DNA of 64,000 bases, from NCBI GenBank assembly GCA_000004695.1, contig CM000155.2:320001-384000 (forward strand), in the 5' to 3' direction. The notes beneath the pieces are model-generated. The model saw nothing but the letters and a program-made list of their open reading frames with translations. It did not search any database and was not told the DNA's origin. The DNA comes from Dictyostelium discoideum. Lineage: Eukaryota. Of the stretch, positions 7,432-46,239 are shown in pieces (the first letter of the stretch is position 1; each line of letters begins with the position of its first letter). The position numbers and the translations under genes are program-made.

Positions 7432-7464
<33 letters not shown>

Positions 7465-13291: not shown

Positions 13292-16043
13292 TTATTTGTT
13301 TGATGAGAGCAGCACCAACAGAATCAACACAACCAATTGTAATACCTGAAATTGCCCACCTGATAGTTTGGATGATTCACTATTTCCTTCAGCACCGATT
13401 GATGGTGATGGAGATATTGATATTTGAATTTCTTCAATTTTAACATCATAATTATATGATGTTGAGCCTAATTGGAGATATAATACTCCTGATGTTTCAT
13501 TAACAAATGAATTTGAATGGCATGATAAACAATCAGTACTATTTGTAATATCGATTTCATTTGAACTTAATATTGGATTACTATCATAAAATGTTTCATT
13601 TGGTGATAAACTACATTGTAAATTACATAAAAGAGAAACATTTTGTGATGAAAGTGCCAAGCTTGCATGAATATTACCTGATAAACCAACACCACCCACT
13701 GTTATTGAAATACCTTCTTTTTTATTTTTAATGGTTGGAACAACTGTAATCTTTGGTTTAAAATATGTTAAGAATGCATTTGGTCCTAAATTATCTCCAA
13801 TGAATGTTGAAACAAGTAGTGGACTCTCTATACTATCAGTTCTGACTATTAACATCTTTTCATCATGAGTAATAATCGTGGTATTTTTATTATTTGCTAA
13901 TACTTTAACTTTGAATTCATCTTCATTTGTTAATAAATTCTTACCAGAAACTGTGATTGTACCTCCACAACCAATTGTTTTATTATCTATATTTATTATA
14001 CCATTAATAACAGGTGGAAATGTTAAACTAAATAATGATTCCATATTAATTCCATCTACAGTAATATCAATTGGACCATAATCATATGAATTCAATGTTT
14101 TAATTGTTAATTGATTATCTTTTAATGCTAAAATTTCTGATGAAATATCATTACCATCGAAATAGACTTGAATTAATGGTATTGAGTTACCGAAATTATT
14201 TCCATGAAATGTAATATTAAATTGATCTTTAGAAAATTTACGATGCTCGATTATTGGAGGAGCATATGAGTATCCATCACTAACTGTCTCTGAGTTTAAT
14301 TTGAATATGAATTGTTTATTTAAACCAGTACCATATGGTGTTGAACATTTTGTTTTATAGTAACCAGATGTTAATGATTGTGATGATGGTATTGAACATT
14401 GGGTGGCTGATGATGAATTACCAATAGTAATACTTGGTGTTGATGATGAAATTAATGGACAATCCATATAATATATTTCAATATTTAATGTTCCATTAGA
14501 TACATTTGGTCTATTAATTACATTAATAATTAATGATGCAGAAATTGAAATTGTATTTGAGGAAATATTAGAACGAGTAAAACTAATATTAAAAGATCTA
14601 CATCTTAAATGAGGTAATTTAAATGTTAAACTCTTTTCATCAGATGTAACATTTAATTGGTCAATTTTTAAATAACTATTAGTTCCATCAGCATACAATT
14701 GAACGAATGATTCTTTATTTTTACCAAAATTTGTACCAATTAATGTAACGAAACCATTTGAATATGATCCACTTGATAATGTTGGAATATTATATGTAAA
14801 TGATACATTATTATTACTTGTTGAATTGCAACCTCCGAAATTAACGTTAACTGGTAAATCTCTACCACCATATTCATTTGGATCTAATTGACATTCTAAT
14901 TCGTTTGTTGTTGATTTAATTAATGTACATTGTTTATTTCCAATTGTAATTGAGGGTTTCAATGATGGATATAAAGTCGAAGATAATTTAACACCTTTAA
15001 TTGTTACAATACCTCCTAAATAATTTGATACTGATGATATTGATGTTATTATTGCTGGAAAACAATGAGTAAAATCCTTTTGAAGAGTAATTTTATTTAC
15101 CTTAATATTAATAGACATTGGACCAAGATCAGGTCTACTAAAGTTATTCACTTGAATTTGTGTATGATTTACTGAAATTATAAAATTTGTTTGATTAATA
15201 CCTCCCAGAAAAACCTCTACCAACTTTTTATCTGTAAAGAAGTTATCACCATTAATTGTTAATATCCCTAATGATTCGTCTGAAACAGTACTTGATATTT
15301 TAGGTGATTTGTATGAAAATGGAATAGGAAAATCACCTTCATCTTCAAAGTTAATTTCAAAATTTCCAGAACCTGGTGGAAATGATACAGTGATATTATT
15401 ACAGTCAAAAGAAGGATCAGAGAAATTACCTTTAACAACAAAAGAAACACCATTTCCATAGTTACTTTTAATAAAATTAGGACCTCCCCTGAATCTTAAA
15501 TAATTACCAGTAAATACTACATCACCTCCAGACGTTGCCGGTTTTTTATTAAACTTGATATCACTTACAAATTGAAATGTATATCCAGTACCAGAAAATT
15601 TATCTATATCTGTAAGATTAAATGAACAATTTTCAACTGGATTTGATAGTTCTTTTGCACATACCTTACTATGAGCACTACCCCATAATCTTGAGAATGG
15701 TTCATCTGAATGGAATGTACAAAGTCTCATACTACCAACAACGACACTACAATTGAAATAATTTGGTGCCATTTCATATCTGGGTGTTGTTTCGTTTTGA
15801 TACATAATTAAACGGGTAGGGTAAGAACGATCGCTTGGATAATTAAAATAATGTATTGTAAATGATTTTTCACTAATTGTTGCAACTAATTAAAATAAAT
15901 TAATTTCATAAACAAATTAATTATCAATAATTAAAAATATAATGATACTTACTATATGCCATTGGATCTTCCATTGAATATGGATATCCTAATTTAAAAA
16001 TTGAGAATAAAAAAAAAACTAGTAATATTATTTTATTTTCCAT
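13292..16043 (-). CDS. secreted IPT/TIG-repeat surface protein with GPI-type hydrophobic C-terminus; join(15953..16043,13292..15885)
   Basis: Exon 1 is [30 protein letters not shown] plus 1 nt, with donor A|GTAAGT. The 67-nt intron ends aattAG. Exon 2 of 2594 nt (phase 1) contains the 837-aa ORF. IPT-like units such as [24 protein letters not shown] and [10 protein letters not shown]...[17 protein letters not shown] are present. The C-terminus is ...[16 protein letters not shown]. Confidence 0.65.
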
Positions 16044-18917: not shown

Positions 18918-21906
<2,989 letters not shown>

Positions 21907-22599: not shown

Positions 22600-23712
22600 A
22601 AAAAAACCAATAATCTAAAATGAATCCATAAAAAGAAATATAAATTTTATTTTATTTATAATTATATTCTCAACGATTTAAATCATTTAATTATTTTATT
22701 ACTTTCGTTTAGGCGCTTTTTTTCCCTGCAGTCAGGAAAAAATAATTTAAAATTTCCCTACAACAGAAATTACAATTTTAAATGGAGACCAACTAACCCG
22801 TACTGAAATTTATTATGAATTACCAATAAAATCAAGTTGTTCAATTGTTTCGAACCAAATGATTAAATGTCTTGGTAATTTTATAAATTATTTAGATTTA
22901 TTTAAAAATGGTAAAATTAAAATACAATTTTCAATATGATTATAATTGATAATATCATAAACCAGTGGAGTTGAAAACAAGAGATTGGTTTACAAATTTA
23001 ATCGATGGAGTTATATCAATTTTAAAATCTGGAGAAGTTACATCACAAACAATTAGATATATATAACTTGAACTGGCTTCATTGAGAATGAAAATGGATC
23101 ACTCATAAAAATAATTGGATTGTGATGAATTATTAATTAATGGTGAAAATTTTAATGAAAATACAATTTACAATACATCTGTATATTGCTTTTCAAAAAA
23201 ACAAGTTTATAATTGTTCATTTATAAACTATACATCTATCTCATGTGATATTGAATTGGTAGGTCCATTCGATCAACTTTGTAAAATCAAATTTAATGGG
23301 TAAAGATGAGAATTATAATATTTCAATATCATATTATCCTCCATTAGTTTTAAATTCAACAAAGATTTCGAATTCATCGATTAGTGGAATTATTACAATT
23401 TTTGGTAATGAATTTTATAATCAAATTGATTTAATTACAGTTGGTAAAAGTAAATGTTTAAACTCTACATTTATAAATTCAACATCGATTTCATGTTTTG
23501 TAGAACCTTCAAATTTTATTATTAATCAAACTGAACAACAACAACAACAATATGTTAACATTACAATTAATAGCAAAAGTGGTGGTAATAATTTAATAAT
23601 TTATTCTGGTAATTCAAATAGAATTGATGAAAATAATAAATCAAATAAAAATACAATTGATGATAAACAAACCAACAATGAAATCAAAAATGAATCCATA
23701 AAAGAAATATAA
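22600..23712 (+). pseudogene. decayed edge copy of the tgr-like array: orphan 3' tail (22600..22690), junction, then a C-terminal gene fragment (22741..23712) with internal inversion and frameshifts
   Basis: 22619..22690 matches the last ~70 nt of the array genes ([20 protein letters not shown]). A GC-rich junction ggcgctttttttccctgcagtcagg follows. 22790 onward matches [18 protein letters not shown]... Then 22960..23120 is the reverse complement of the neighbouring coding block (it matches the antisense [15 protein letters not shown] ORFs of the other copies). The distal end reads in frame only with an extra g at aatggGtaaagatg and a 1-nt loss before the tail. There is no upstream signal exon. 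Confidence 0.7.
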
Positions 23713-24608
23713 ATTTAATTTTATTTATAATTATATTCTCAACGATTTTAATCATTTAATTAAATTTATTACTTTCGTTATAAAAAAAATTAAACTCACA
23801 CCAAAAACAATGATTTAGTATATATAAAAATGATTATTTTTAGTGGTTTTGTGTCAAATAAAAAAAAATAATAATACAATAATAAATTTTGAACATGTTG
23901 TTTTTTTTTTTTAATTTTTTTTTTTTTAATTATTTTTATAATAATTATTTTTTTGTTTTTACTATTTGATAAGTGTGTTATTGTGAATTTTGATAATTAA
24001 AATAATATATAAAAATCAAAAATAATTAAAAATATTACCACTTCTCATAAACTACTTTTTATGGTAGTGGTTGAAAAAAAAAAAAAATAATAATAATTTT
24101 AATTTCAATTAAAAAAAACAAGCCCAAAAAAGTTTAATACAATAAATAGTATTCTAATATGATGAAAGAAACATCAAGTGGTGGGTGGTAAACTTGGCAC
24201 ACAGTGTTAAAAAAAAACAATATGAGTAATATTGAAAATCATACAACAAAACTGATAATATTAAAAGAAATTAGTGGGATGTGTGTGTTGAAAAACATTT
24301 TTCAATAAATTATGTGATTGTTTATTTTTAATTTAATATTGAAGCATTACCTTATTGTTTTTATTATTATTTTTATTATTATTATTTTTTTTTTTTTTTT
24401 TTTTTATTATCAATATTTTTGTTTTTTTTAATTATTATTAATATTTATGTTTTTTTTTAATTATTAATATTTTTGTTTTTAAAAAATTTTTATAATTATT
24501 ATTTTTATTTTTAAATAATTTTTTTTCCAACCCAAACCCGTAATATTAAATTTTTTTCCCTTTTCAAAAAAACAATTTCATTATTAAAATAATAAATAGT
24601 AAATCAAA

Positions 24609-24768
24609 ATGAAATTTTTTATATTATTTTTTATTTTATATTTAGTTTCTGATACATTAGGACATTTAAATGAACCAGTTGTCAAGAGTAAATATTTAAT
24701 ATAAAAATAATTTAATCTTTTTTTTTATATTGTTTTTTCCGGTTTGGGTTTTTTTTTTTTTCCAAATT

Positions 24769-24833
<65 letters not shown>

Positions 24834-24955
24834 TTTGGTTATTGTTATTTACTATTTTTAATTTTTTTTAATGTGTTAATATTTAACTAGTTAAAAAAAT
24901 ACAAATATTCAATTTTGTAACCACTTGTCAATATAATTAAAGAAATTTGCAATTG

Positions 24956-25018
<63 letters not shown>

Positions 25019-27624
25019 AGTTTAAAATTAATATCTATAAATATTAATATTAATAAATATTAATCATTTAATAGATACATTCTCTATATTTTTGTATTTT
25101 TTTAAAAAGAAATCGATGGTTTCCAACACTAATTTTTTCTAATGATTTTATTTTAATTTCAGATTTTACATACACAAAACAATCATTGGAATATACATAT
25201 GATATTGATAGTACATATTATATAAAATGGATTTTTTCAAATTTGGAATATGAATTGGTTTTTGAATGTAAAAATAATAGCAAAGAAAGAACATGTACTG
25301 CTGGTATGTCCATTGATATTGCTAAAAATTTACATGGTCAAATAAAGGTATGCATACGTGGAATTGATAATAATGGTGTATTAGATTGCCATATTGCTTT
25401 TTATGAAGAATATTTTCCAAAGCCAATTATTGAAGGTGACTTTAAACCATCTACCAAAGGTGGTCCTACTATTATGAAAGGTTATTATTTGGCAATTGGT
25501 GCATACTACTATACCATTATCCCTGATACTAGATTGGGTATAATAGGTGATATTTTTAGTAACTCTATTGATGTCACAAATTTAATACTAGACTATAAAG
25601 GTGGTTGTGGCCCAGGAACTATTCAATGGTCAAATGATTTTAAATATAGTTTCAATCATTCAAATCCAATCATTGAAAATATTTTTATTGAAGGTTCATC
25701 TTTTATATCAAAAGGTTCTAATTTTTGTAATTCTTCTGATTCAATTCAAATTTATTTAGATGGTGTTCAAATTGATAAATCAAAAATAAAATCAATTGAT
25801 CATGAGCAATTTGAAATAATTTACACTCAACTATATTCAAAATCAATCAATGTTAAAATAGTATCTGGTGGACTTGAATCGAATATTTACAAATTGGATT
25901 TTAAACCGATACCTTTAAAAATTAATAGTGTTCCAAGATTAAAAGGTGGTTCAGTTACAATAATTGGTGAAAGACTATCTCCACAAGTATATAATTCAAC
26001 AATCATTGTTAAAATTGGTCAATATGATTGTAAAAATGTAATCTCATCAAAAAATGAAATTCTCTGTAATTTAGAATCGGTTCAAAATGTTGAAAAGGTT
26101 AAATTGGTAGATTTACAAGTTAATATCTCAATAAATGGTATTTTTAATGAAAATAATTTATTATTCTCATTCGATGTACCAATAATGTCAGATTTTATAC
26201 TTCCTCAAGGTGAAGTTAAATTAGTTGGTGATTGTTTTGGTTCTTCACAATTGACTCAAGTTAAAATTGACGATGTGTTACAATCCAATATAACAATTAA
26301 TATTAATGAAAAAGAAACAACACTTTCATTTAAGCCAATTAAACCAATTAAAAAATCAAAGTTATATATAATTGTCAATGGTACAAAATCAAATACTATT
26401 GAAATTGATTCATCATTTTTTGTAAAAAGTGTTCCATCTTCACCTTCAGTAAATGGTCAAATTGTAAACTTTACACTTTTCAATATAAATCCAAATAATG
26501 TAAATGCAACACCAATTATGATTTTTCAAAATAATAGTTCAATAAATGCAATTGATTATAAAAATTCAAATGAATACTCAACTCACACATACTCCTTTGA
26601 TATTCCAAAAAGTTGTGGGAGAAATGAGATTACAATTTTAATTGGAGACCAACTAACCCGTACTGAAATTTATTATGAATTACCAATAATATCAAGTTGT
26701 TCAATTGTTCCAAATCAAATGATTAAATGTCTTGGTAATTTTTTAAATTATCTAGATTTATTTAAAAATGGTAAAATTAAAATACAATTTTCAAATATGG
26801 TAATAATTGATAATATTCCAAACAATTCAATTATTTTTATGAGTGATTCATTTTCATTCCCAATGAAGCCAGAGTATAGTTCAAGTGATATATATCTTAT
26901 TGTTTGTGATGAAACTTCTCCATATTTTAAAGTTGATATAACTCCATCGCTTAAATTTGTGAGCCAATCTCTTGTTTTCAACTCCACTGGTGGTGAATTA
27001 TTAATTAATGGTGAAAATTTTAATGAAAATACAATTTACAATACATCTGTATATTGCTTTTCAAATAAACAAGTTTATAATTGTTCATTTATAAACAATA
27101 CATCTATCTCATGTGATATTGAATTGGTAGGTCCATTCGATCAACTTTGTAAAATCAAATTTAATGGTAAAGATGAGAATTATAACATTTCAATATCATA
27201 TTATCCTCCATTAGTTTTAAATTCAACAACGATTTCGAATTCATCGATTGGTGGAATTATTATAATTTTTGGTAATGAATTTTATAATCAAATTGATTCA
27301 ATTACAGTTGGTAAAAGTAAATGTTTAAACTCTACATTTATAAATTCAACATCGATTTCATGTTTTGTAGAACCTTCAAATTTTATTATTAATCAAACTG
27401 AACAACAACAACAATATGTTAACATTACAATTAATAACAAAAGTGGTGGTAATAATTTAATAATTTATTCTGTTAATTCAAATAGAATTGATGAAAATAA
27501 TAAATCAAATAAAAATACAATTGATGATAAACAAACCAACAATGAAATCAAAAATGAATCCATAAAAAGAAATATAAATTTAATTTTATTTATAATTATA
27601 TTCTCAACGATTTTAATCATTTAA
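24609..27624 (+). CDS. tgr-like IPT/TIG-repeat surface protein, array copy 1 (GPI-type tail); join(24609..24687,25163..27624), about 846 aa
   Basis: Exon 1 is [26 protein letters not shown] plus 1 nt, with donor A|GTAAAT. The 475-nt intron contains a 66-nt poly-T and ends ttttaatttcAG. Exon 2 (phase 1) runs ...[20 protein letters not shown]... through repeated IPT-like units ([12 protein letters not shown]...[19 protein letters not shown]; [53 protein letters not shown]; [44 protein letters not shown]). It ends in the hydrophobic tail [16 protein letters not shown] then TAA. Confidence 0.6.
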
Positions 27625-28444: not shown

Positions 28445-31400
28445 ATTTTACATGCACAAAACAATCATTGGAATATACATATGATATTGATAGTACATAT
28501 TATATAAAATGGATTTTTTCAAATTTGAAATATGAATTGGTTTTTGAATGTAAAAATAATAGCAAAGAAAGAACATGTACTGCTGGTATGTCCATAGATA
28601 TTGCTAAAAATTTACATGGTCAAATAAAGATGTGCGGAACTGATAATAATGGTGTATTAGATTGCCATATGCGTGTATACGAAGAATATTTTCCAAAGCC
28701 AATTATTGAAGGTGACTTTAAACCATCTACCAAAGGTGGTCCTACTATTATGAAAGGTTATTATTTGGCAGTTGGAGTAATTCCTTACTTTACTATTATC
28801 CCTGGTACTATATTGGGAACAATAGGTGATATTTTTAGTAACTCTATAGATGTCACAAATTTAATACTAGACTATAAAGGTGTTGTGGCCCAAGAACTAT
28901 TCAATGGCCAAATGATTTTAAATATAGTTTCAATCATTCAAATCCAATCATTGAAAATATTTTTATTGAAGGTTCATCTTTTATATCAAAAGGTTCTAAT
29001 TTTTGTAATTCTTCTGATTCAATTCAAATTTATTTAGATGGTGTTCAAATTGATAAATCAAAAATAAAATCAATTGATCATGAGCAATTTGAAATAATTT
29101 ACACTCAACTATATTCAAAATCAATCAATGTTAAAATAGTATCTGGTGGACTTGAATCGAATATTTACAAATTGGATTTTAAACCTATACCTTTAAAAAT
29201 TAATAGTGTTCCAAGATTTAAAGGTGGTTCAATTACAATAATTGGTGAAAGACTATCTTCACAAGTAAATAATTCAACAATCATTGTTAAAATTGGTCAA
29301 TATCATTGTAAAAATGTAATCTCATCAAAAAATGAAATTCTCTGTAATTTAGAATCGGTTCCAAATGTTGAAAAGGTTAAATTGGTAGATTTGCAAGTTA
29401 ATATCTCAATAATGGTATTTTTAATGAAAATAATTTATTATTCTCATTCGATGTACCAATAATATCAGATTTTATACTTCCTCAAGGTGAAGTTAAATTA
29501 GTTGGTGATTGTTTTGGTTCTTCACAATTGACTCAAGTTAAAATTGACGATGTGTTACAATCCAATATAACAATTAATATTAATGAAAAAGAAACAACAC
29601 TTTCATTTAAGCCAATTAAACCAATTAAAAAGTCAAAGTTATATATAATTGTCAATGGTACAAAATCAAATACTATTGAAATTGATTCATCATTTTTTGT
29701 AAAAAGTGTTCCATCTTCACCTTCAGTAAATGGTCAAATAGTAAACTTTACACTTTTCAATATAAATCCAAATAATGTAAATGCAACACCAATTATGATT
29801 TTTCAAGATAATAGTTCAATAAAAGCAATTGATTATAAAAATTCGAATGAATACTCGACTCACACATACTCTTTTGATATTCCAAAAAGTTGTGGGAGAA
29901 ATGAAATTACAATTTTAATTGGAGACCAACTAACCCGTACTGAAATTTATTATGAATTACCAATAATATCAAGTTGTTCAATTGTTTCAAATCAAATGAT
30001 TAAATGTCTTGGTAATTTTACAAATTATTTAGATTTATTTAAAAATGGTAAAATTAAAATACAATTTTCAAATATGATAATAATTGATAATATTCCAAAC
30101 AATCCAATTATTTTTATGAGTGATTCATTTTCATTCCCAATAAAGCCAGAGTATAGTTCAAGTGATATATATCTTATTGTTTGTGATGAAACTTCTCTAG
30201 ATTTTAAAGTTGATATAACTCCATCGCTTAAATTTGTGAGCCAATCTCTTGTTTTCAACTCCACTGGTGGTGAATTATTAATTAATGGTGAAAATTTTAA
30301 TGAAAATACAATTTACAATACATCTGTATATTGCTTTTCAAATAAACAAGTTTATAATTGTTCATTTATAAACAGTACATCTATCTCATGTGATATTGAA
30401 TTGGTAGGTCCATTCGATCAACTTTGTAAAATCAAATTTAATGGAAAAGATGAGAAGTATAACATTTCAATATCATATTATCCTCCATTAGTTTTAAATT
30501 CAACAACGATTTCGAATTCATCAATTGGTGGAATTATTACAATTTTAATTGGAGACCAACTAACCCGTACTGAAATTTATTATGAATTACCAATAATATC
30601 AAGTTGTTCAATTGTTTCAAATCAAATGATTAAATGTCTTGGTAATTTTACAAATTATTTAGATTTATTTAAAAATGGTAAAATTAAAATACAATTTTCA
30701 AATATGGTAATAATTGATAATATTCCAAACAATCCAATTATTTTTATGAGTGATTCATTTTCATTCCCAATGAAACCAGAGTATAGTTCAAGTGATATAT
30801 ATCTTATTGTTTGTGATGAAACTTCTCCATATTTTAAAGTTGATATAACTCCATCGCTTAAATTTGTGAGCCAATCTCTTGTTTTCAACTCCACTGGTGG
30901 TGAATTATTAATTAATGGTGAAAATTTTAATGAAAATACAATTTACAATACATCTGTATATTGCTTTTCAAATAAACAAGTTTATAATTGTTCATTTATA
31001 AACAATACATCTATCTCATGTGATATTGAATTGGTAGGTCCATTCGATCAACTTTGTAAAATCAAATTTAATGGTAAAGATGAGAAGTATAACATTTCAA
31101 TATCATATTATCCTCCATTAGTTTTAAATTCAACAACGATTTCAAATTCATCAATTGGTGGAATTATTACAATTTTTGGTAATGAATTTTATAATCAAAT
31201 TGATTCAATTACAGTTGGTAAAAGTAAATGTTTAAACTCTACATTTATAAATTCAACATCGATTTCATGTTTTGTAGAACCTTCAAATTTTATTATTAAT
31301 CAAACTGAACAACAACAACAATATGTTAACATTAAAATTAATAGCAAAAGTGGTGGTAATAATTTAATAATTTATTCTGGTAATTCAAATAGAATTGATG

Positions 31401-31531
31401 AAAATAATAAATCAAATAAAAATACAATTGATGATAAACAAACCAACAATGAAATCAAAAATGAATCCATAAAAAGAAATATAAATTTAATTTTATTTAT
31501 AATTATATTCTCAACGATTTTAATCATTTAA
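28445..31531 (+). pseudogene. tgr-like array copy 2: lacks the signal exon, has two frameshifts and a 627-bp in-frame internal tandem duplication
   Basis: The coding region is split over ORFs 28468..29037, 29172..29462 and 29528..31531. A g is missing at ~28891 (ggtgttgtggcc versus ggtggttgtggcc in other copies). An a is missing at ~29410 (ctcaataatggt versus ctcaataaatggt). Segment ~29918..30544 ([14 protein letters not shown]...SIGGIITI) is repeated at ~30545..31180, and the copies differ at about 1% of sites. The upstream ATG exon seen in other units is absent: 27790-27840 joins the preceding 3' flank directly to the intron tail ttttactgtttgggtt. Confidence 0.75.
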
Positions 31532-32621: not shown

Positions 32622-35592
32622 TTTGAATTATATTTGTTATTTACTATTTTTAATTTTTTAATATTAAAGTCTCCAAATATTCAGCTATTGTTTATTTTTT
32701 ATATCATTGTTAATGTCATTAATAACTATAACTAGTTATTAATATAAATAAAAATCAATCATTTTGTAGATATATTATCTATTTATGTATTTTATAAGAT
32801 ATTGATAATTTCCAACACTAATTTTTAATTTTTTGTTTGGTTCATTATTATTTTTTTAAAAATTGTTCAATGTTTTAACCACTTTTCAATGTAATTAAAG
32901 ATATTTGCAATTGTTTATTAAAAAAAAAAAAAAAAATTGTTTGTTATTTTATTAAAAAAAAAAGAGCTACTGTTCATTTTTTAATAAATTAATTTTAAAT
33001 CAATATCTATAACAATTGATATTAATAAATAATAATCATTTAATAGATACATTATCTATATTTTTTGTAATTTTTTTAAAAAGAAATCAATAGTTTCCAA
33101 CACTAATTTTTTCTTATGATTTTATTTTAATTTCAGATTTTACATGCACAAAACAATCATTGGAATATACATATGATATTGATAGTACATATTATACAAA
33201 ATGGATTTTTTCAGATTTGGAATATGAATTGGTTTTTGAATGTAAAAATAATAGCAAAGAAAGAACATGTACTGCTGGTATGTCCATTGATATTGCTAAA
33301 AATTTACATGGTCAAATAAAGATGTGCGGAACTGATAATAATAGTGTATTAGATTGCCATTCGAATTACGAAGAATATTATCCAAAGCCAATTATTGAAG
33401 GTGACTTTAAACCATCTACCAAAGGTGGTCCTACTATTATGAAAGGTTATTATTTGGCAGTTGGTGCATACTACTATAACATTATCCCTTATACTAGATT
33501 GGGTATTATAGGTGATGTTCATAGTAACTCTATAGATGTCACAAATTTAATACTAGACTATAAAGGTGGTTGTGGCCCAAGAACTATTCAATGGCCAAAT
33601 GATTTTAAATATAGTTTCAATCATTCAAATCCAATCATTGAAAATATTTTTATTGAAGGTTCATCTTTTATATCAAAAGGTTCTAATTTTTGTAATTCTT
33701 CTGATTCAATTCAAATTTATTTAGATGGTGTTCAAATTGATAAATCAAAAATAAAATCAATTGATCATGAGCAGTTTGAAATAATTTACACTCAACTATA
33801 TTCAAAATCAATCAATGTTAAAATAGTATCTGGTGGACTTGAATCGAATATTTACAAATTGGATTTTAAACCTATACCTTTAAAAATTAATAGTGTTCCA
33901 AGATTAAAAGGTGGTTCAATTACAATAATTGGTGAAAGACTATCTTCACAAGTAAATAATTCAACAATCATTGTTAAAATTGGTCAATATGATTGTAAAA
34001 ATGTAATCTCATCAAAAAATGAAATTCTCTGTAATTTAGAATCGGTTCCAAATGTTGAAAAAGTTAAATTGGTAGATTTACAAGTTAATATCTCAATAAA
34101 TGGTATTTTTAATGAAAATAATTTATTATTCTCATTCGATATACCAATAATATCAGATTTTATACTTCCACAAGGTGAAGTTAAATTAGTTGGTGATTGT
34201 TTTGGTTCTTCACAATTGACTCAAGTTAAAATTGACGATGTATTACAATCCAATATAACAATTAATATTAATGAAAAAGAAACAACACTTTCATTTAAGC
34301 CAATTAAACCAATTAAAAAATCAAAGTTATATATAATTGTCAATGGTACAAAATCAAATACTATTGAAATTGATTCATCATTTTTTGTAAAAAGTGTTCC
34401 ATCTTCACCTTCAGTAAATGGTCAAATTGTAAACTTTACTCTTTTCAATATAAATCCAAATAATGTTAATGCAACACCAATTATGATTTTTCAAGATAAT
34501 AGTTCAATAAAAGCAATTGATTATAAAAATTCAAATGAATACTCAACTCACACATACTCTTTTGATATTCCAAAAAGTTGTGGGAGAAATGAAATTACAA
34601 TTTTAATTGGAGACCAACTAACCCGTACTGAAATTTATTATGAATTACCAATAATATCAAGTTGTTCAATTGTTTCAAATCAAATGATTAAATGTCTTGG
34701 TAATTTTTTAAATTATTTAGATTTATTTAAAAATGGTAAAATTAAAATACAATTTTCAAATATGGTAATAATTGATAATATTCCAAACAATCCAATTATT
34801 TTTATGAGTGATTCATTTTCATTCCCAATGAAGCCAGAGTATAGTTCAAGTGATATATATCTTATTGTTTGTGATGAAACTTCTCTAGATTTTAAAGTTG
34901 ATATAACTCCATCGCTTAAATTTGTGAGCCAATCTCTTGTTTTCAACTCCACTGGTGGTGAATTATTAATTAATGGTGAAAACTTAAATGAAAATACAAT
35001 TTACAATACATCTGTATATTGCTTTTCAAATAAACAAGTTTATAATTGTTCATTTATAAACAATACATCTATATCATGTGATATTGAATTGTTAGGTCCA
35101 TTCGATCAACTTTGTAAAATCAAATTTAATAGTAAAGATGAGAATAATAACATTTCAATATCATATTATCCTCCATTAGTTTTAAATTCAACAACGATTT
35201 CAAAATCATCAACTGGTGGAATTATTACTATTTTTGGTAATGAATTTTATAATCAAATTGATTCAATTACAGTTGGTAAAAGTAAATGTTTAAACTCTAC
35301 ATTTATAAATTCAACATCGATTTCATGTTTTGTAGAACCTTCAAATTTTAATATTAACCAAACTGAACAACAAAAAAAACAATATGTTAACATTATAATT
35401 AATGGTAAAAGTGGTGGTAATAATTTAATAATTTATTCTGGTAATTCAAATAGAATTGATGAAAATAACAAATCAAATAAAAATACAATTGACGAAAAAC
35501 AAACCAATAATGAAATCAAAAATGAATCTATTAAAAGAAATATAAATTTTATATTATTTATAATTATATTCTCAACAATTTTAATCATATAA
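32396..35592 (+). CDS. tgr-like IPT/TIG-repeat surface protein, array copy 3 (GPI-type tail); join(32396..32474,33137..35592)
   Basis: Same architecture as copy 1: exon 1 [26 protein letters not shown] plus 1 nt, donor GTAAAT, a 662-nt intron with a ~75-nt poly-T, acceptor tttcAG at 33135-33136, and the 810-aa ORF 33160..35592 in phase. Confidence 0.6.
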
Positions 35593-36397
35593 TTTAATTT
35601 ATTAATTTCATTGTAAAAAAAAAAAAAAATAAAACTCCAACCAAAAACAATTATTGGGTATATATAAAAAATGATTATTTTTGGTGGGTTAAAAATAAAA
35701 TATAATACAATAATAAATTTTGAACTTATTTTTTTTTTTTTATTTTTTGATAATTTTTTTTTTTTTAATTATTTTTAAAATAATTATTTTTTTGTTTTTA
35801 CTATTTGATAAGTGTGATTGTGAATATTAATAATTTAAATAAAATATAAAATTAAAAATGATTAAAAATATAACCACTTATCATAAAATACTTTTTTTGG
35901 CAGTGGTTGAAAAAAAAAAAAAAAATAATAATATTCATTTCAATTAAAAAAAACACATCCAAAAAAGTTTAATAAAAAATAAATAGTATTCTAAAATGAT
36001 GAAAGAAACACCAATTGGTGGGTGTGGTAAACTTGACACAGTGTTTAATAAACATGATGAGTAATATTGAAAATCATACAACAAAACTGATAAAAATAAA
36101 TTAGTGTGGGAGTGTGTGTTGAAAAACATTTTTCAATAAATTATTTGATTGTTTTTTTTTAATTTACTATTGAAGCATCGTTACCTTAATTTTATTATTA
36201 TTATTATTATTATTTTTTTTTTTCTTTAATATTTTTTTTAATTATTATTATAATTTTTATTTTTTTTAATTATTAATATTTTTGTTTTTATATTTTTTTA
36301 ATTATTAATATTTTTTATTTTTTTATTTCAAATCATAAATTATTTAACATCCTCAAAAAAACAATTTTAATATTAAAATAATAATAGTAAATCAACA

Positions 36398-39105
36398 ATG
36401 AAAATTATTATATTTTTTTTTATTTTATATTTATTTTCCGATACATAAGGATCTTTAGTTGTCAAGAGTAAATATATAAATTAAAATAATTTTAATTTTT
36501 TTTAGTTTTCATTATATCTATATGTACAAAATATATATGTGTCTTAGATAATCATTGAATAGATACATTATTTATATTTTGTATTTTTTTAAAAAGAAAT
36601 CAATGGTTTCCAACTCTAATTTTTTCTAATATTTACATTTTAATTTCAGATTTTACATGCACAAAACAATCATTGGAATATACATATGATATCGATAGTA
36701 CATATTATACAAAATGGATTTTTTCAGATTTGGAATATGAATTGGTTTTTGAATGTAAAAATAATAGCAAAGAAAGAACATGTACTGCTGGTATGTCCAT
36801 TGATATTGCTAAAATTTTACATGGTCAAATAAAGAAGTGCGGAACTGATAATAATAGTGTATTAGATTGCCATTTGAAATACGAAGAATATTATCCAAAG
36901 CCAATTATTGAAGGTGACTTTAAACCATCTACCAAAGGTGGTCCTACTATTATGAAAGGTTATTATTTGGCAGTTGGTGCATACTACTATAACATTATCC
37001 CTTATACTAGATTGGGTATTATAGGTGATGTTCATTGTAACTCTATAGATGTCACAAATTTAATACTAGACTATAAAGGTGGTTGTGGCCCAAGAACTAT
37101 TCAATGGCCAAATGATTTTAAATATAGTTTCAATCATTCAAATCCAATCATTGAAAATATTTTTATTGAAGGTTCATCTTTTATATCAAAAGGTTCTAAT
37201 TTTTGTAATTCTTCTGATTCAATTCAAATTTATTTAGATGGTGTTCAAATTGATAAATCAAAAATAAAATCAATTGATCATGAGCAGTTTGAAATAATTT
37301 ACACTCAACTATATTCAAAATCAATCAATGTTAAAATAGTATCTGGTGGACTTGAATCGAATATTTACAAATTGGATTTTAAACCTATACCTTTAAAAAT
37401 TAATAGTGTTCCAAGATTAAAAGGTGGTTCAATTACAATAATTGGTGAAAGACTATCTTCACAAGTAAATAATTCAACAATCATTGTTAAAATTGGTCAA
37501 TATCATTGTAAAAAGGTAATCTCATCAAAAAATGAAATTCTATGTAATTTAGAATCGGTTCCAAATGTTGAAAAAGTTAAATTGGTAGATTTACAAGTTA
37601 ATATCTCAATAAATGGTATTTTTAATGAAAATAATTTATTATTCTCATTCGATATACCAATAATATCAGATTTTATACTTCCACAAGGTGAAGTTAAATT
37701 AGTTGGTGATTGTTTTGGTTCTTCACAATTAACTCAAGTTAAAATTGACGATGTGTTACAATCTAATATAACAATTAATATTAATGAAAAAGAAACAACA
37801 CTTTCATTTAAGCCAATTAAACCAATTAAAAAATCAAAGTTATATATAATTGTCAATGGTACAAAATCAAATACTATTGAAATTGATTCATCATTTTTTG
37901 TAAAAAGTGTTCCATCTTCACCTTCAGTAAATGGTCAAATTGTAAACTTTACTCTTTTCAATATAAATCCAAATAATGTTAATGAAACACCAATTATGAT
38001 TTTTCAAGATAATAGTTCAATAAATGCAATTGATTATAAAAATTCAAATGAAAACTCGACTCACACATACTCTTTTGATATTCCAAAAAGTTGTGGGAGA
38101 AATGAAATTACAATTTTAATTGGAGACCAACTAACCCGTACTGAAATTTATTATGAATTACCAATAATATCAAGTTGTTCAATTGTTTCAAATCAAATGA
38201 TTAAATGTCTTGGTAATTTTTTAAATTATCTAGATTTATTTAAAAATGGTAAAATTAAAATACAATTTTCAAATATGGTAATAATTGATAATATTCCAAA
38301 CAATCCAAATATTTTTATGAGTGATTCATTTTCATTCCCAATGAAGCCAGAGTATAGTTCAAGTGATATATATCTTATTGTTTGTGATGAAACTTCTCCA
38401 GATTTTAAAGTTGATATAACTCCATCGCTTAAATTTGTGAGCCAATCTCTTGTTTTCAACTCCACTGGTGGTGAATTATTAATTAATGGTGAAAATTTTA
38501 ATGAAAATACAATTTACAATACATCTGTATATTGCTTTTCAAATAAACAAGTTTATAATTGTTCATTTATAAACAATACATCTATCTCATGTGATATTGA
38601 ATTGGTAGGTCCATTCGATCAACTTTGTAAAATCAAATTTAATGGTAAAGATGAGAATTATAACATTTCAATATCATATTATCCTCCATTAGTTTTAAAT
38701 TCAACAACGATTTCGAATTCATCGATTGGTGGAATTATTATAATTTTTGGTAATGAATTTTATAATCAAATTGATTCAATTACAGTTGGTAAAAGTAAAT
38801 GTTTAAACTCTACATTTATAAATTCAACATCGATTTCATGTTTTGTAGAACCTTCAAATTTTATTATTAATCAAACTGAACAACAACAACAACAATATGT
38901 TAACATTACAATTAATAACAAAAGTGGTGGTAATAATTTAATAATTTATTCTGGTAATTCAAATAGAATTGATGAAAATAATAAATCAAATAAAAATACA
39001 ATTGATGATAAACAAACCAACAATGAAATCAAAAATGAATCCATAAAAAGAAATATAAATTTAATTTTATTTATAATTATATTCTCAACGATTTTAATCA
39101 TTTAA
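36398..39105 (+). CDS. tgr-like array copy 4: exon 2 (36650..39105) is intact but the signal-peptide exon at 36398 carries an in-frame TAA and a 9-nt deletion; possibly a pseudogene
   Basis: Exon 2 (810-aa ORF 36673..39105) is full length. The homologous exon 1 reads atgaaaattattatattttttttt..ttttccgatacaTAAggatctttagttgtcaagag, against ..gatacaTTAggatctttaaatgaaccagttgtcaagag in copies 3 and 5. The intron is reduced to ~170 nt, compared with ~660 nt in the other units. Confidence 0.5.
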
Positions 39106-39943
39106 TTAAATTTATTACTTTCGTTATAAAAAAAATTATACTCCCACCAAAAACAATGATTGAATATATATAAAAAATGATTATTTTTAGTGGTTTTGTG
39201 TTAAATAAAAAAAAAAAAAATACAATAATAAATTTTGAACATGTTGTTTTTTTTTTTTTATATTTTTTTTTTTTTCTAATTATTTTTATAATAATTATTT
39301 TTTTGTTTTTGCTATTTGATAAGTGTGTTATTGTGAATTTTGATAATTAAAATAATATATAAAATCAAAAATAATTAAAAATATAACCACTTCTCATAAA
39401 CTACTTTTTATGGTAGTGGGTGAAAAAAAAAAAAATAATAATTTTCATTTCAATTAAAAAAAACAAGCCTAAAAAATTTTAATACAATTAATAGTTTTCT
39501 AATATGATGAAAGAAACATCAAGTGGTGGGTGTGGTAAACTTGGCACACAGTGTTAAAAAAAAACAATATGAGTAATTTTGAAAATCATACAACAAAACT
39601 GATAATATTAAAATAAATTAGTGGGATGTGTGTGTTGAAAAACATTATTTAATAAATTATGTGATTTGTTTATTTTAATTTAATATTGAAGCATTACCTT
39701 ATTGTTTTTATTATTATTTTTTTTTTTTTTTTTTTTTTTTTTTATTATTATCAATATTTTTTTTTTTTAATTATTATTAATATTTATGTTTTTTTAATTA
39801 TTAATATTTTTGTTTTTATATATTATTTTAATTATTATTTTTTTATTATTTTTTTTATTTCAAATCATTTACAGTAATAATAAATTATTTAACATCCTCA
39901 AAAAAACAATTTCATTATTAAAATAATAAATAGTAAACCAAAA

Positions 39944-40105
39944 ATGAAATATATTATATTATTTTTTATTTTATATTTAGTTTCTGATACATTAGGATCT
40001 TTAAATGAACCAGTTGTCAAGAGTAAATATTTTAAATATAAAAATAATTTTATTTTTTTTTTTTTATTGTTTTTACTGTTTGGGTTATTTTTATATCTCA
40101 AATTT

Positions 40106-40151
<46 letters not shown>

Positions 40152-43100
40152 TTTGATTATTGTTGTTATTTACTATTTTTAATTTTTTAATATTAAAGTC
40201 TCCAAATATTCAGCTATTGTTTATTTTTTTATATCATTGTTAATGTCATTAATAACTATAACTAGTTATTAATATAAATAAATATCAATCATTTTGTAGA
40301 TATATTATCTATTTATGTATTTTATAAAAGATATTGATAATTTCCAACACCAATTTTTAATTTTTTTATTTGGTTCATTAATATTTTTTTAAAAAATTTT
40401 CAATGTTTTAACCACTTGTCAATGTAATTAAAGATATTTGCAATTGTTTATTAAAAAAAAAAAAAAAAAAAAAATTGTTTGTTATTTTTTTAAAAAAAAA
40501 AAAAAAGAGCTACTGTTCATTTTTTAATAAATTAATTTTAAATTAATATCTATAACTATTAATATTAATAAATATTAATCATTTATTAGATACATTATCT
40601 CTATTTTTTGTATTTTTTTAAAAAGAAATCAATGGTTTCCAACACTAATTTTTTCTTATGATTTTATTTTAATTTTAGATTTTACATGCACAAAACAATC
40701 ATTGGAATATACATATGATATTGATAGTACATATTATTCAAAATGGATTTTTTCAAATTTGAAATATGAATTGGTTTTTGAATGTAAAAATAATAGCAAA
40801 GAAAGAACATGTACTGCTGGTATGTCCATTGATATTGCTAAAAATTTACATGGTCAAATAAAGATGTGCAGAACTGATAATAATGGTGTATTAGATTGCC
40901 ATTCGAATTACGAAGAATATTTTCCAAAGCCAATTATTGAAGGTGACTTTAAACCATCTACCAAAGGTGGTCCTACTATTATGAAAGGTTATTATTTGGC
41001 AGTTGGAGTAATTCCTTACTTTACTATTATCCCTGATACTATATTGGGAACAATAGGTGATATTTTTAGTAACTCTATAGATGTCACAAATTTAATACTA
41101 GACTATAAAGGTGGTTGTGGCCCAAGAACTATTCAATGGCCAAATGATTTTAAATATAGTTTCAATCATTCAAATCCAATCATTGAAAATATTTTGATAG
41201 AAGGTTCATCTTTTATATCAAAAGGTTCTAATTTTTGTAATTCTTCTGATTCAATTCAAATTTATTTAGATGGTGTTCAAATTGATAAATCAAAAATAAA
41301 ATCAATTGATCATGAACAATTTGAAATAATTTACACTCAACTATATTCAAAATCAATAAATGTTAAAATAGTATCTGGTGGACTTGAATCGAATATTTAC
41401 AAATTGGATCTTAAACCTATACCTTTAAAAATTAATAGTGTTCCAAGATTAAAAGGTGGTTCAATTACAATAATTGGTGAAAGACTATCTTCACAAGTAA
41501 ATAATTCAACAATCATTGTTAAAATTGGTCAATATGATTGTAAAAATGTAATCTCATCAAAAAATGAAATTCTCTGTAATTTAGAATCGGTTCCAAATGT
41601 TGAAAAGGTTAAATTGGTAGATTTACAAGTTAATATCTCAATAAATGGTATTTTTAATGAAAATAATTTATTATTCTCATTCGATATACCAATAATATCA
41701 GATTTTATACTTCCTCAAGGTGAAGTTAAATTAGTTGGTGATTGTTTTGGTTCTTCACAATTGACTCAAGTTAAAATTGACGATGTGTTACAATCCAATA
41801 TAACAATTAATATTAATGAAAAAGAAACAACACTTTCATTTAAGCCAATTAAACCAATTAAAAAATCAAAGTTATATGTAATTGTCAATGGTACAAAATC
41901 AAATACTATTGAAATTGATTCATCATTTTTTGTAAAAAGTGTTCCATCTTCACCTTCAGTAAATGGTCAAATTGTAAACTTTACACTTTTCAATATAAAT
42001 CCAAATAATGTTAATGCAACACCAATTATGATTTTTCAAGATAATAGTTCAATAAAAGCAATTGATTATAAAAATTCAAATGAATACTCAACTCACACAT
42101 ACTCTTTTGATATTCCAAAAAGTTGTGGGAGAAATGAAATTACAATTTTAATTGGAGACCAACTAACCCGTACTGAAATTTATTATGAATTACCAATAAT
42201 ATCAAGTTGTTCAATTGTTTCAAATCAAATGATTAAATGTCTTGGTAATTTTATAAATTATCTAGATTTATTTAAAAATGGTAAAATTAAAATACAATTT
42301 TCAAATATGGTAATAATTGATAATGTTCCAAACAATCCAATTATTTTTATGAGTGATTCATTTTCATTCCCAATGAAGCCAGAGTATAGTTCAAGTGATA
42401 TATATCTTATTGTTTGTAATGAAATTTCTCCAGATTTTAAAGTTGATATAACTCCATCGCTTAAATTTGTGAGCCAATCTCTTGTTTTCAACTCCACTGG
42501 TGGTGAATTATTAATTAATGGTGAAAATTTTAATGAAAATACAATTTACAATACATCTGTATATTGCTTTTCAAATAAACAAGTTTATAATTGTTCATTT
42601 ATAAACTATACATCTATCTCATGTGATATTGAATTGGTAGGTCCATTCGATCAACTTTGTAAAATCAAATTTAATGGAAAAGATGAGGAGTATAACATTT
42701 CAATATCATATTATCCTCCATTAGTTTTAAATTCAACAACGATTTCGAATTCATCAATTGGTGGAATTATTACAATTTTTGGTAATGAATTTTATAATCA
42801 AATTGATTCAATTACAGTTGGTAAAAGTAAATGTTTAAACTCTACATTTATTAACTCAACATCAGTTTCATGTTTTTTAGAACCTTCCAAAATTATTATT
42901 GATCAAAGCAAACAACAACAGCAACAACAACAACAACAACAACAATATGTTAACATCACGATTAATGGTAAAAGTGGTGGTAATAATTTAATTATTTATT
43001 TTGATAATTCAATTATTGAAGTTAAAAACCAATCAAGCCAAAGTGATAAAAACAACAACAACAACAACAACAACAATGGTAAAAATATAAATAATGGTGA

Positions 43101-43863
43101 TAGTAAAACTGATGGTAGAAGTTTTTATGAAAAAAATAAAAAATGGATAACAGTATTAATAATAATTGGAAGTTTGGCATTACTTTTATTTATCTTTTTT
43201 GGTATAATTTATTGTAATAGAAAAAACGGTACTGTTATCTATTGGAAATATATTATGTGTCGCGGAATCAAAGAAAAAAAATATAAATTTAAAAATAGAA
43301 AAGAGATAAAACAAATACAAGAATTAAGACATACATTGGATAATGCAGAGACAATTTTTGCTGACTTTGAATTAGATAATATAATAACTTATTCAGAGTA
43401 TCAACTTACACCCGAAAATCGTCTACGAAAAGAACAACAAGAATTAGCTCGAGAAAATTATATTGAAACTTACCCAGATTATTATTTACATATAAATAAA
43501 ACTAAAAATTTACCAAATAATGATTCATTACCTCCAAATCAAGTTGAAAATTTACCAAATAATAATTCATTACCTCCAAATAAAATTGAAAATTCATTAC
43601 CTCCGAATCAAACTGAAAATTTACCAAATAATAATTCATTACCTCCAAATCAAACTGAAACATTACAAGAAGATTCTTTACCTCCAAATCAAACTGAAAC
43701 ATTACCAGAAGTTTCATTACCTCCAAATCATATTGAAACATTACCAGAAGTTTCATTACCTCCAAATCAAATTGAAACATTACCAGAAGTTTCATTACCT
43801 CCAAATCATATTGAAAAACTAACAGACAATTCATCATCATCTCAAGACCCAAGCTCTTCATAA
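39944..43863 (+). CDS. tgr-like IPT/TIG-repeat protein, array copy 5, with a transmembrane helix and a repetitive cytoplasmic tail; join(39944..40022,40679..43863)
   Basis: Exon 1 is [26 protein letters not shown] plus 1 nt, the intron is 656 nt, and the 1053-aa ORF begins at 40702. It is identical in layout to the other copies up to ~42850, then diverges: Q12 tract, N-rich linker, TM helix [23 protein letters not shown], basic stretch [17 protein letters not shown], and 8 tandem 11-12-aa units SLPPNQ(T/I)E(N/T)LP(N/E)(N/V). Confidence 0.65.
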
Positions 43864-44637: not shown

Positions 44638-46239
44638 ATGTCATATAATGGTATTGGAATAAAGACAGCAAGAGGTACAGGTACAAATGGTTATGTACAA
44701 AGAAATTTATCATATGTTAATACAAATTATAATAAAACTGAATATAGTATAAAAAAAGAAAGAGAATCAATTCTTGAACAACAAAAAAAACAACAATCAC
44801 AACCAATTAAAAAAGCAAATTTAGAATTAATTGAACATAATAGAAAAAGAAGAATTGAAGTTGAAATTGCACAATGGGCAGAAGAAAATGATTTATATGA
44901 AAAATATAAAGATCAAGAAGAATTGGATGCATTATTAGCAAAGAAAAGAGAAGAATTATTAGAGAAACAACAACAACAACAACAAAATAATAATAATAAT
45001 AATACCACTGAAGAAGAAGAAGAGGATGGGCAATATTCAAAACTAACAGATTCACATTCAAAACAATATCAAAAAGAAAAAGAGATAAAAAGATTCACAG
45101 ATGCATTAAACATTAAAGATTATATACCTGGTGCTTCTTTAGATAAGCAAGTTCAACAAGAACGTAAAGAAAAAAGACATCAAGAATATTTAGAAAGACA
45201 AAAAGAAAGAGAAAGAAAACAAAAAGAACATGAAAAACTTGAAAGAGATAGACAAAGAGAATACGATAGAAGAAGTAGAGATTCAGATAGAGATATTGAT
45301 AGATATAAAAGTACTAAAGATAGAGATAGAGATAGCGATAGAGATAGACATAGAGACAGAGACAGTGATAGATATAGAAGTAGTAGAGATAGTAGAGATA
45401 GTAGAGGTAGTAGAGATAGTAGAGATAGTAGAGATAGTAGAGATATTAGAGGTAGTAGGGATAGTAGGGATAATAGAGATAGTAGAGATAGAAGATATAG
45501 ATCTCGTAGTCGTTCAAATTCTCCTTCTTATTCAAAATCAACATCCCCAAGTAAGAGAGATAGAGATAGAAAGTCATATAGAGATCGTTCAGATTCAGAG
45601 TCATCATCAAGTAGTAGAGAAAGAGATCGTTCACATTCAATATCACCAAAAAGAGAAAAGAATACAACAACAACAACAACAAAAACAGCAATAAAGGAGA
45701 GATCAGTTTCTCCACCAAATATTGCTAGAAACAGATCACCACCACATAGAGATAGAGGTAATAAAAAAGAAGAAGAGGGGGATAAATCAATGTCACCACC
45801 AAGAAATAGAAGTGGTAGAAATAGATCGCTTTCACCATCACAATCACCAGCAATAAAAAGAAGTGTTAAAAAAGATGAAGAGGAGGATAAATCAATGTCA
45901 CCACCAAGAAATAGAAGTGGTAGAAATAGATCACTTTCACCATCGCAATCACCAACAATAAAAAGAAGTGTTAAAAAAGATGAAGAATCAATGTCACCAC
46001 CAAGAAATAGAGTTGGTAGAAATAGATCACTTTCACCAGCAATAAAAAGAAGTGTTAAAAAAGAAGAAAAGGAAGAAGAATCAATGTCACCACCAAGAAA
46101 AAGAAATAAAGATGATGAGGAGGAGCAGGAGGAGGAAGAGGATCTGAGATCAATATTTCCTTCAAGAAAAAGACAAAACACTCAAGACCATGAATCACCA
46201 CAAAGAAAAAGACTCGATTCTTCCTCTGATACTGATTAA
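44638..46239 (+). CDS. SRRM2/Cwc21-family RS-domain splicing protein (cwf21-type N-terminus)
   Basis: The N-terminus MSYNGIGIKTARGTGTNGYVQRNLSYV matches the conserved Cwc21/SRm300 N-terminal motif (MYNGIGLQTxRGSGTNGYVQRNLS). It is followed by a coiled charged region and long RDRDSDR / SRDSRDSRGSRDSR / SPPRNRSGRNRSLSP repeats. Single 533-aa exon. Confidence 0.8.
   Translation: MSYNGIGIKTARGTGTNGYVQRNLSYVNTNYNKTEYSIKKERESILEQQKKQQSQPIKKANLELIEHNRKRRIEVEIAQWAEENDLYEKYKDQEELDALLAKKREELLEKQQQQQQNNNNNNTTEEEEEDGQYSKLTDSHSKQYQKEKEIKRFTDALNIKDYIPGASLDKQVQQERKEKRHQEYLERQKERERKQKEHEKLERDRQREYDRRSRDSDRDIDRYKSTKDRDRDSDRDRHRDRDSDRYRSSRDSRDSRGSRDSRDSRDSRDIRGSRDSRDNRDSRDRRYRSRSRSNSPSYSKSTSPSKRDRDRKSYRDRSDSESSSSSRERDRSHSISPKREKNTTTTTTKTAIKERSVSPPNIARNRSPPHRDRGNKKEEEGDKSMSPPRNRSGRNRSLSPSQSPAIKRSVKKDEEEDKSMSPPRNRSGRNRSLSPSQSPTIKRSVKKDEESMSPPRNRVGRNRSLSPAIKRSVKKEEKEEESMSPPRKRNKDDEEEQEEEEDLRSIFPSRKRQNTQDHESPQRKRLDSSSDTD

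Follow-up and report, generated by a model that had tools for sequence, protein, structure and literature searches.

The stretch of Dictyostelium discoideum chromosome 6 analysed here (64,000 nt; contig CM000155.2 of assembly GCA_000004695.1, positions 320,001 to 384,000 of the forward strand), hereafter the window, has a G+C content of ~20% and carries an array of five paralogous Tgr open reading frames (ORFs) on one strand, c1 to c5, of which c5 stands last. The first four copies share a short hydrophobic C-terminus, while c5 continues into a transmembrane (TM) helix and a long, repeat-bearing cytoplasmic tail. We consider it probable that the c5 tail is the ancestral C-terminus, that the short tail is a second and old ending, that the join between near-identical ectodomains and non-homologous tails is a recombination or conversion boundary, that such arrays grow by adding short copies ahead of a terminal long one, and that the C-terminal repeats of c5 were amplified in place. 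A preliminary description of the window had correctly recognised that one paralog family combines two different C-termini with almost identical ectodomains, and had read c5 as the copy that switched away from a tail of the glycosylphosphatidylinositol (GPI) type. The tail of c5 is, however, orthologous to that of Q54EH0, the product of another D. discoideum gene, and to tails in three other species, which reverses that reading.

Five Tgr copies on one strand

The ORF of c5 (40702–43863, + strand) belongs to a gene whose product is 100% identical to an annotated protein of D. discoideum strain AX4 (Q54EL4/XP_635226.2, P0001; 1087 aa). Exon 1 (39944–40022) encodes the signal peptide, the intron (40023–40678) runs from GTAAAT to TTTTAG, and exon 2 extends from 40679 to 43863. 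The two exons sum to 3264 nt, that is 1087 aa and a stop, and splicing yields the junction of P0001 (...VVK followed by NFTCTKQS), so that the gene model agrees with the AX4 protein. Pfam searches matched c5 to Ig_TgrO1 (PF24612, E = 2.6e-31) and IPT/TIG (PF01833, E = 1.7e-11), and c4 matches both families as well. The array thus has the ectodomain of the Tgr family, an IPT/TIG domain with a TgrO1-like Ig domain. By inspection, exon 1 encodes an N-terminal signal sequence in c1, c3 and c5. The single C-terminal TM segment with cytoplasmic tail that is typical of the family is present in c5 and absent from c1 to c4, where zero residues follow the hydrophobic run.

The upstream copies, all on the + strand, comprise c1 (25186–27624), the broken c2 (28468–29037 and 29528–31531, the latter part termed c2b), c3 (33160–35592; XP_635224) and c4 (36673–39105). 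An intact signal-peptide exon is present only in c1, c3 and c5, and c1 and c3 are the only intact genes among the four short copies. Exon 1 of c4 (36390–36470) has a 9-nt deletion and is interrupted in frame by a TAA (GATACATAAGG), which leaves the 810-aa c4 ORF without a usable signal peptide; in the annotation of one strain (P0006), c4 starts at an upstream ATG and lacks a signal sequence. The c2 copy (28468–31531) is a pseudogene, in which the preceding spacer lacks the exon 1 region, frameshifts split the ORF, and an internally duplicated block ends in ...GGIIT.

A 2025 preprint describes tgrA as the sole tgr cluster of unpaired, same-strand genes, a description that the present arrangement fits, and its Table S3 gives 2541 nt for tgrA1 and 3267 nt for tgrA3. 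The length of c1 (846 aa and a stop) is exactly that of tgrA1, and c5 measures 3264 nt against the 3267 nt of tgrA3; c1 is probably tgrA1 (protein Q54EL9) and c5 tgrA3. Direct RNA reads reported in the preprint (strain QS33, 9 h) number 34 for tgrA3 and 21 for tgrA1.

An old short tail with signs of purifying selection

The preliminary description had assigned a short hydrophobic C-terminus to the first four copies, and one shared ending followed by a stop is indeed found in c1 (27469–27624), c2b (31376–31531, in the pseudogene), c3 (35437–35592) and c4 (38950–39105, in the copy with the nonsense codon in exon 1). This ending comprises 51 codons, which encode a linker rich in N and K, then K-N-E-S and, after a spacer of 6 aa, a hydrophobic end of 14 aa; it reads ...NESIKRNIN(L/F), then 13 further residues and the stop. 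No downstream exon or splice donor was found past the short-copy stops, and the AX4 gene models concur.

The gene for Q54EH0 (XP_635270; 1038 aa) lies on the same chromosome 6 of AX4, outside the array. Its locus (L001) proved to be a segmental copy of a unit consisting of short tail, spacer, long gene and downstream flank. The 3' end of c4 with its short tail (38900–39304) corresponds to L001 9125–9492, the spacer with exon 1 (39405–40052) to L001 9507–10109, and the long gene (40444–43723) to L001 10353–13605 (84%), with the downstream flank copied as far as 44267. The short-tail remnant upstream of Q54EH0 can still be read in frame, and its presence indicates that both tails were already adjacent at the time of this duplication, since which synonymous divergence has reached ~0.22–0.35.

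To this remnant we added the short tails of the window, of a D. cf. discoideum array (L004) and of a D. discoideum strain (L006), giving a set of 12 copies. All 12 stop at an identical position and retain KNES, spacer and hydrophobic run, all indels are in frame, and the ratio of nonsynonymous to synonymous divergence (dN/dS) is 0.14–0.27 at a synonymous divergence (dS) of 0.26–0.67. The short tail also gives an ungapped alignment of 39 residues with the tails of short 5-Ig Tgr proteins from the sister clade (P0026, P0031), with N-E-S placed against S-E-G (p = 0.002–0.004 in shuffles that kept the polar and hydrophobic segments separate). These comparisons indicate a tail that is old and under purifying selection. 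A derivation of the short tail by truncation or frameshift of the long stalk and TM segment was considered and found to be unsupported (protein p = 0.14–0.63, segment-preserving shuffles). At the DNA level, a local alignment of the short tail with the long stalk/TM region matched at 24 of 28 positions in another reading frame (1/200 shuffles), and the 3' flanks of short and long copies show A/T-run similarity only.

The short copies might also be truncated genes in the course of decay, their hydrophobic end being an accident of AT-rich sequence with no anchoring role. As such a reading would have it, the window has two pseudogenes among its four short copies; most tgr genes are reported to be lowly expressed and many to be pseudogenes; and the non-functional remnant upstream of Q54EH0 has kept its reading frame too. 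We nevertheless regard decay as unlikely, given the low dN/dS that the 12 copies maintain at dS values up to 0.67, the constant position of the stop, and the retention of KNES and the hydrophobic run in three D. discoideum-complex assemblies as well as in the window. The similarity to the sister-clade tails, in which the candidate omega and omega+2 positions are again taken by small residues, and the direct RNA reads for tgrA1 argue in the same direction.

A predicted GPI-attachment signal

The C-termini were examined with a home-made GPI rule, which calls for a terminal hydrophobic segment no shorter than 11 aa, set off by a spacer of 4–10 aa from an omega site where omega and omega+2 are both small. 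One consistent candidate site (N-E-S, 6-aa spacer, 14-aa end) was obtained in every A-type short copy, and zero sites in true long C-termini. The intact copies c1 and c3 combine a secretory signal peptide with a C-terminal hydrophobic segment that has no cytoplasmic residues, as expected of a GPI-anchored protein. The GPI-type tail proposed in the preliminary description agrees with this layout; the rule itself is of low specificity, as it also passes two of five artificially truncated TM segments. Judged by this layout together with the purifying selection, the short tail most likely works as a GPI-attachment signal. Literature searches returned nothing specific on GPI anchoring of Tgr proteins or on the tgrA gene names. 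A distant Tgr-like gene of the window (13292–15805, − strand), with Ig_TgrO1 and TIG domains and 26% identity to c5, likewise has a GPI-like C-terminus, so that short hydrophobic ends recur in the Tgr family.

Another reading of the same tail is that it acts without GPI attachment, either as a short C-terminal TM segment lacking cytoplasmic residues or as an end that is cleaved to give a soluble ectodomain. The low specificity of the rule leaves room for this, N-E-S doubles as an N-glycosylation sequon, and tgrB2 is reported to have no TM segment at all and still to be expressed. Against it, both the spacer length and the small omega and omega+2 residues are kept in every A-type copy. A run of 14–16 hydrophobic residues at the very C-terminus is on the short side for spanning a bilayer stably and has the classical layout of a GPI signal, which we also count against a non-GPI end; on balance such an end appears improbable.

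Ancestry of the long tail

Q54EH0 has in common with c5 the TM segment, the juxtamembrane motif NRKNGTV(I/V)YWKY and the end ...SSSQDGPSSSS. Homologs from D. citrinum, D. dimigraforme and D. firmibasis also have a TM segment and a cytoplasmic tail, which ends in PSSSS, and a juxtamembrane motif of the form NRKN..V.Y.K is common to c5, Q54EH0 and the proteins of these three species. In D. citrinum, a Tgr pair adjoins the ortholog (59% identity) of the kinase/ankyrin (Ank) gene that flanks the array in the window, and both copies of the pair have a TM segment. These comparisons point to the stalk, TM helix and cytoplasmic tail as the ancestral C-terminus of the TgrA clade.

The Ank-repeat protein kinase gene itself lies at 18918–21906 (+ strand) of the window, and its D. 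citrinum ortholog is oriented oppositely relative to the array. The upstream copy of the D. citrinum pair has lost the distal tail through a 253-nt internal deletion and has kept its 3' flank; the segments at L002 7984–8014 and 12759–13013 overlap by ~30 nt at the deletion junction. This deletion was considered as a model for the D. discoideum short tail and set aside, as it represents a different route.

The c5 residues from 43138 onward were scanned with HMMER against 1.84 billion representative proteins. Among the 12 matches, two were real, namely a Q54EH0-like protein and a stray 198-aa fragment with TM and tail, and the others (P0038–P0047) were unrelated repeat proteins. The fragment is encoded by an ORF at L005 10001–10813 (GCA_054859355.1), directly after an MCM gene in another strain; it comprises TgrA stalk, TM segment and repeat tail alone, and represents a 3' piece dispersed from a long-type tgrA gene. 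The preliminary description had asked whether the divergent 3' module is shared with non-array genes, as a sign of exon shuffling. The scan gave no evidence of exchange with genes outside the Tgr family: only TgrA-type tails and unrelated repeat proteins were matched. A word-index search with the c5 tail alone returned nothing and missed even the parent protein, and is uninformative, probably owing to low complexity.

That an originally GPI-type array recently gained, in c5, a foreign TM segment and repeat tail, for example by exon shuffling, is the impression given by the window alone, with four short tails to one long and no second copy of the c5 tail within it, but this is very improbable in view of the orthology of that tail to those of Q54EH0 and three other species, the presence of a TM segment in both copies at the syntenic D. 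citrinum locus, the scan, in which the tail was not found in any non-Tgr protein, and the encoding of tail and ectodomain in one exon, which leaves no exon boundary to shuffle.

The 3' end of c5

The ectodomain part of exon 2 (40679–42846), with its Ig_TgrO1 and IPT/TIG domains, is homogenised with the short-tail copies. It is followed by a transition segment (42847–43012), which is homologous to the short copies yet diverged, with changes private to c5 and a Q11 tract (42913–42945; previously given as Q12), and by a long-type stalk (43013–43143), which contains an N9 tract (43051–43077), is common to Q54EH0 and is absent from c1 to c4. The TM helix (43144–43212) reaches a Kyte-Doolittle value of 3.09 (19-aa window), aligns with the TM segments of all long-type homologs, and was modelled by AlphaFold (single-sequence) with a predicted local distance difference test score of 86–96. 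Beyond it, a basic juxtamembrane stretch (...KFKNRKE; 12 basic and 2 acidic among 34 residues) and a Tyr- and acid-rich middle part (43213–43506) were modelled as low-confidence helices, and the eight tandem units (43507–43815) as unstructured. A Ser-rich C-terminus with the stop (43816–43863) is conserved across species. The N-rich linker, single TM helix and basic juxtamembrane stretch of the preliminary description are all confirmed, and these features of the c5 3' end are not due to chance.

With 217 residues after the TM helix, the cytoplasmic tail of c5 is the longest of the set (61–174 residues in the others), the extra length being due to the repeat block. Between c5 and Q54EH0, dN/dS is ~1.0 from the TM segment to the repeats, 0.59 in the repeats, and 0.33–0.36 in the ectodomain and stalk.

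Amplification of a C-terminal motif

The preliminary count of eight tandem units holds. Each encodes (N/T)LP..SLPPN(Q/K/H)xE, and their lengths are, in order, 42, 42, 27, 42, 39, 39, 39 and 39 nt, a range of 27–42 nt that is wider than the 33–36 nt first assigned to them. Units 6 and 8 are identical in DNA and unit 7 differs by one base; Tandem Repeats Finder scores over the c5 3' end reach 320. The ORFs 43502–43861 (− strand) and 43520–43822 (+ strand) lie wholly within the repeats, in keeping with their earlier dismissal as spurious.

The last unit and the C-terminus of c5 align with a C-terminal motif that other species have in single copy and that reads LSPNQIQKLPDYDLSINDVPSSSS in D. firmibasis and LSPLKIEPLSDNSFSQDSPSSSSQ in D. 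citrinum; the single-copy motif of the sister clade is PLSENQ(M/I/F)GKLP(D/E)Y. The conserved motif is roughly L-(S/P)-(P/E)-N-Q-(I/M)-x-(K/T)-L-P. Since a homologous motif is present in single copy elsewhere, the c5 repeats are best read as copies of a conserved C-terminal motif, amplified in place to eight units, possibly by replication slippage or unequal exchange. Q54EH0 carries five units, of the form PPNQxE(T/K)LP, and the eight of c5 include a c5-specific NLPNNNS subtype. Conservation of the motif in single copy fits a short linear motif. The preliminary description had likened the proline-rich repeats to a docking motif; inspection of the repeat units revealed no canonical core of the SH3 (PxxP), WW (PPxY) or EVH1 (FPPPP) type.

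A boundary of homogenisation near 42850

The identity of c5 to c1, c3 and c4 and to the Q54EH0 gene was scored in 150-nt windows. Over 41143–42792, c5 is 97–100% identical in DNA to c1, c3 and c4, after which identity falls to 0.78–0.80 and then to 0.63–0.65. Identity to the Q54EH0 gene is 0.83–0.96 over 41143–42792, 0.85 at 42793–42942 and 0.90 at 42943–43092, and in the alignment c5 tracks Q54EH0 from ~42990. The preliminary description had c5 match its siblings up to ~42850; this is where near-identity ends, but detectable homology continues to ~43012–43036, and all of it is gone by 43036.

The ectodomain dS between c5 and the short copies is 0.038–0.044, compared with 0.028–0.046 among the short copies themselves, 0.22 between c5 and Q54EH0, and 0.38 between c5 and a D. 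cf. discoideum short copy. As ectodomains that differ by a dS of ~0.04 are joined to tails that have been adjacent since a dS of ~0.22–0.35, we infer that the join is a boundary of recombination or gene conversion, which would lie at the 5' edge of the transition segment. A cluster of substitutions private to c5 was observed at 42851–42990 (SNF(I/N)INQT(E/K) to SKIIIDQSK), where the Q54EH0 gene resembles the short copies; it seems that the ends of the conversion tract differ between the two loci, or that the donor is unsampled.

Array order at other loci

The order short...short-long recurs at three other loci. In D. firmibasis (L003), short copies of 674, 672 and 648 aa with hydrophobic C-termini are followed by a 967-aa long copy, and short and long units cease to be homologous at a clean break (L003 4435/11769). 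In ACTFIW, a D. discoideum strain, a B-type array consists of three short copies and then a long one, and at the Q54EH0 locus a short-tail remnant precedes the long gene. In D. cf. discoideum, a dispersed long copy has an upstream flank that starts inside the array spacer.

We propose a mechanism in which recombination keeps the array ectodomains ~97–100% identical, while the two tails, being non-homologous, would be unable to convert each other and would retain a much older divergence. Unequal crossing-over between a short copy (S) and the terminal long copy (T) could only add short units, giving S-S-T, or collapse the array to a single T. From this geometry, arrays would be expected to grow as S...S-T, with T staying last.

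Other features of the window

The left edge of the array (22612–24867, + strand) is degenerate, consisting of a scrambled partial copy and spacer sequence. It contains a short-tail fragment (22612–22709, +), mid-gene fragments (22766–23139), one of them inverted (23139–22943), and a 3' gene fragment (23122–23715, +) that ends in ...NESIKEII and a stop. The array thus begins with a short-tail fragment, as it would if the short tail were the start of the duplicated unit, but the edge is scrambled and partly inverted.

Immediately 3' of the array lies a 533-aa Arg/Ser/Asp-rich ORF (44638–46239, + strand), which consists in part of repeated KSMSPPRNRSGRNRSLSPSQSP(A/T)IKRSVKKDEE units and has no Pfam match at E < 0.01; on either strand around it, the overlapping ORFs are probably repeat artefacts. 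A 1049-aa ORF at 6534–9683 (− strand) has no Pfam match and is unrelated to the gene flanking the Q54EH0 locus; residues such as ...LDITINGDGF... within it are suggestive of degenerate TIG-like repeats.

Discussion

Several points weigh against the account given here of an ancestral long tail, an old short tail and growth of the array ahead of a terminal long copy. In the ACTFIR array (L006), four short copies are followed by a transposase gene and not by a long copy, so that the terminal position of the long copy is a tendency and no rule. No significant similarity connects the short tail with the long stalk and TM segment that might point to its origin. The join may stem from gene conversion or from recent unequal crossing-over. 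In the non-repeat cytoplasmic part of c5, the dN/dS of ~1 argues against a strongly constrained signalling domain; the pattern across the tail fits a disordered tail constrained at short motifs, and fits weak constraint equally well. To these may be added the low specificity of the GPI rule, and the drawing of the names tgrA1 and tgrA3 from lengths and numbering.

The array resembles other Tgr genes in being clustered, rapidly duplicating and recombining, and tgrA is reported to be among the most prolific tgr subfamilies. With the allorecognition pair TgrB1/TgrC1 and the wider Tgr family, c5 shares the signal peptide, the Ig_TgrO1 and IPT/TIG domains, and the single TM segment with cytoplasmic tail. 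TgrB1 and TgrC1 are, however, encoded by a head-to-head pair with a shared promoter, are dissimilar in sequence and both have a TM segment, whereas the tgrA array lies on one strand and sets near-identical ectodomains on different anchors. Loss of the TM segment and tail with the frame kept is a feature that the tgrA short copies share with tgrB2, a TM-less member that is expressed, and with truncated tgrB/tgrC alleles, which are likewise TM-less. These members are described as truncated at variable points and as having no hydrophobic end, whereas the tgrA short copies share one conserved hydrophobic module. Birth-and-death dynamics of Tgr genes, their recombination, the prolific duplication of tgrA and the existence of TM-less members have been published already; GPI-type ends or a short...short-long arrangement of tgrA are not mentioned in the papers searched. 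The finding is an incremental point on an annotated family and does not constitute a new kind of system.

Among the closest functional parallels, near-identical ectodomains carried either on a signalling-competent TM segment with tail or on a lipid anchor are found in human FcgammaRIIIA (TM) and FcgammaRIIIB (GPI), which are neighbouring duplicated genes in which a single residue near the omega site decides the anchor, and in NCAM and LFA-3, where GPI and TM isoforms arise through alternative splicing. The tgrA array differs from these in having two unrelated 3' ends, and the GPI anchor of its short copies is a predicted one. In the KIR, LILR, Ly49 and SIRP clusters of paired activating and inhibitory immune receptors, ligand-binding domains are homogenised through gene conversion or unequal crossing-over and tails are distinct, with an immunoreceptor tyrosine-based inhibitory motif (ITIM) or charged TM residues, for which the partners are known. 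The tgrA array is like these clusters in its tandem arrangement, homogenised ectodomains and distinct tails, but the TgrA3 tail yielded no ITIM-type or charged-TM motif.

The activating mutation L846F shows that the cytoplasmic domain is important for TgrB1 signalling. In analogy to this receptor, TgrA3 may be a signalling-competent form, and TgrA1 and TgrA2 may be tail-less, lipid-anchored forms that share its binding surface. A further idea, which we regard as a long shot, is that tgrA arrays encode a matched pair for homotypic self-recognition beside TgrB1/TgrC1, with TgrA1/TgrA2 as lipid-anchored display and TgrA3 as TM receptor. If so, concerted evolution would keep the binding surfaces identical, specificity and signalling partner would co-evolve automatically, and the amplified C-terminal motif would set the signalling valency.

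Kin recognition in social amoebae rests on the tgr family, of which tgrA is among the fastest-duplicating and least understood subfamilies. In several species, tgrA arrays tend to consist of short-tailed copies followed by one long-tailed copy, with homogenised ectodomains and both tails conserved, which would explain a striking sequence join without domain shuffling. This arrangement may offer a handle on tgrA function, in the form of a lipid-anchored display or decoy form beside a signalling receptor form.

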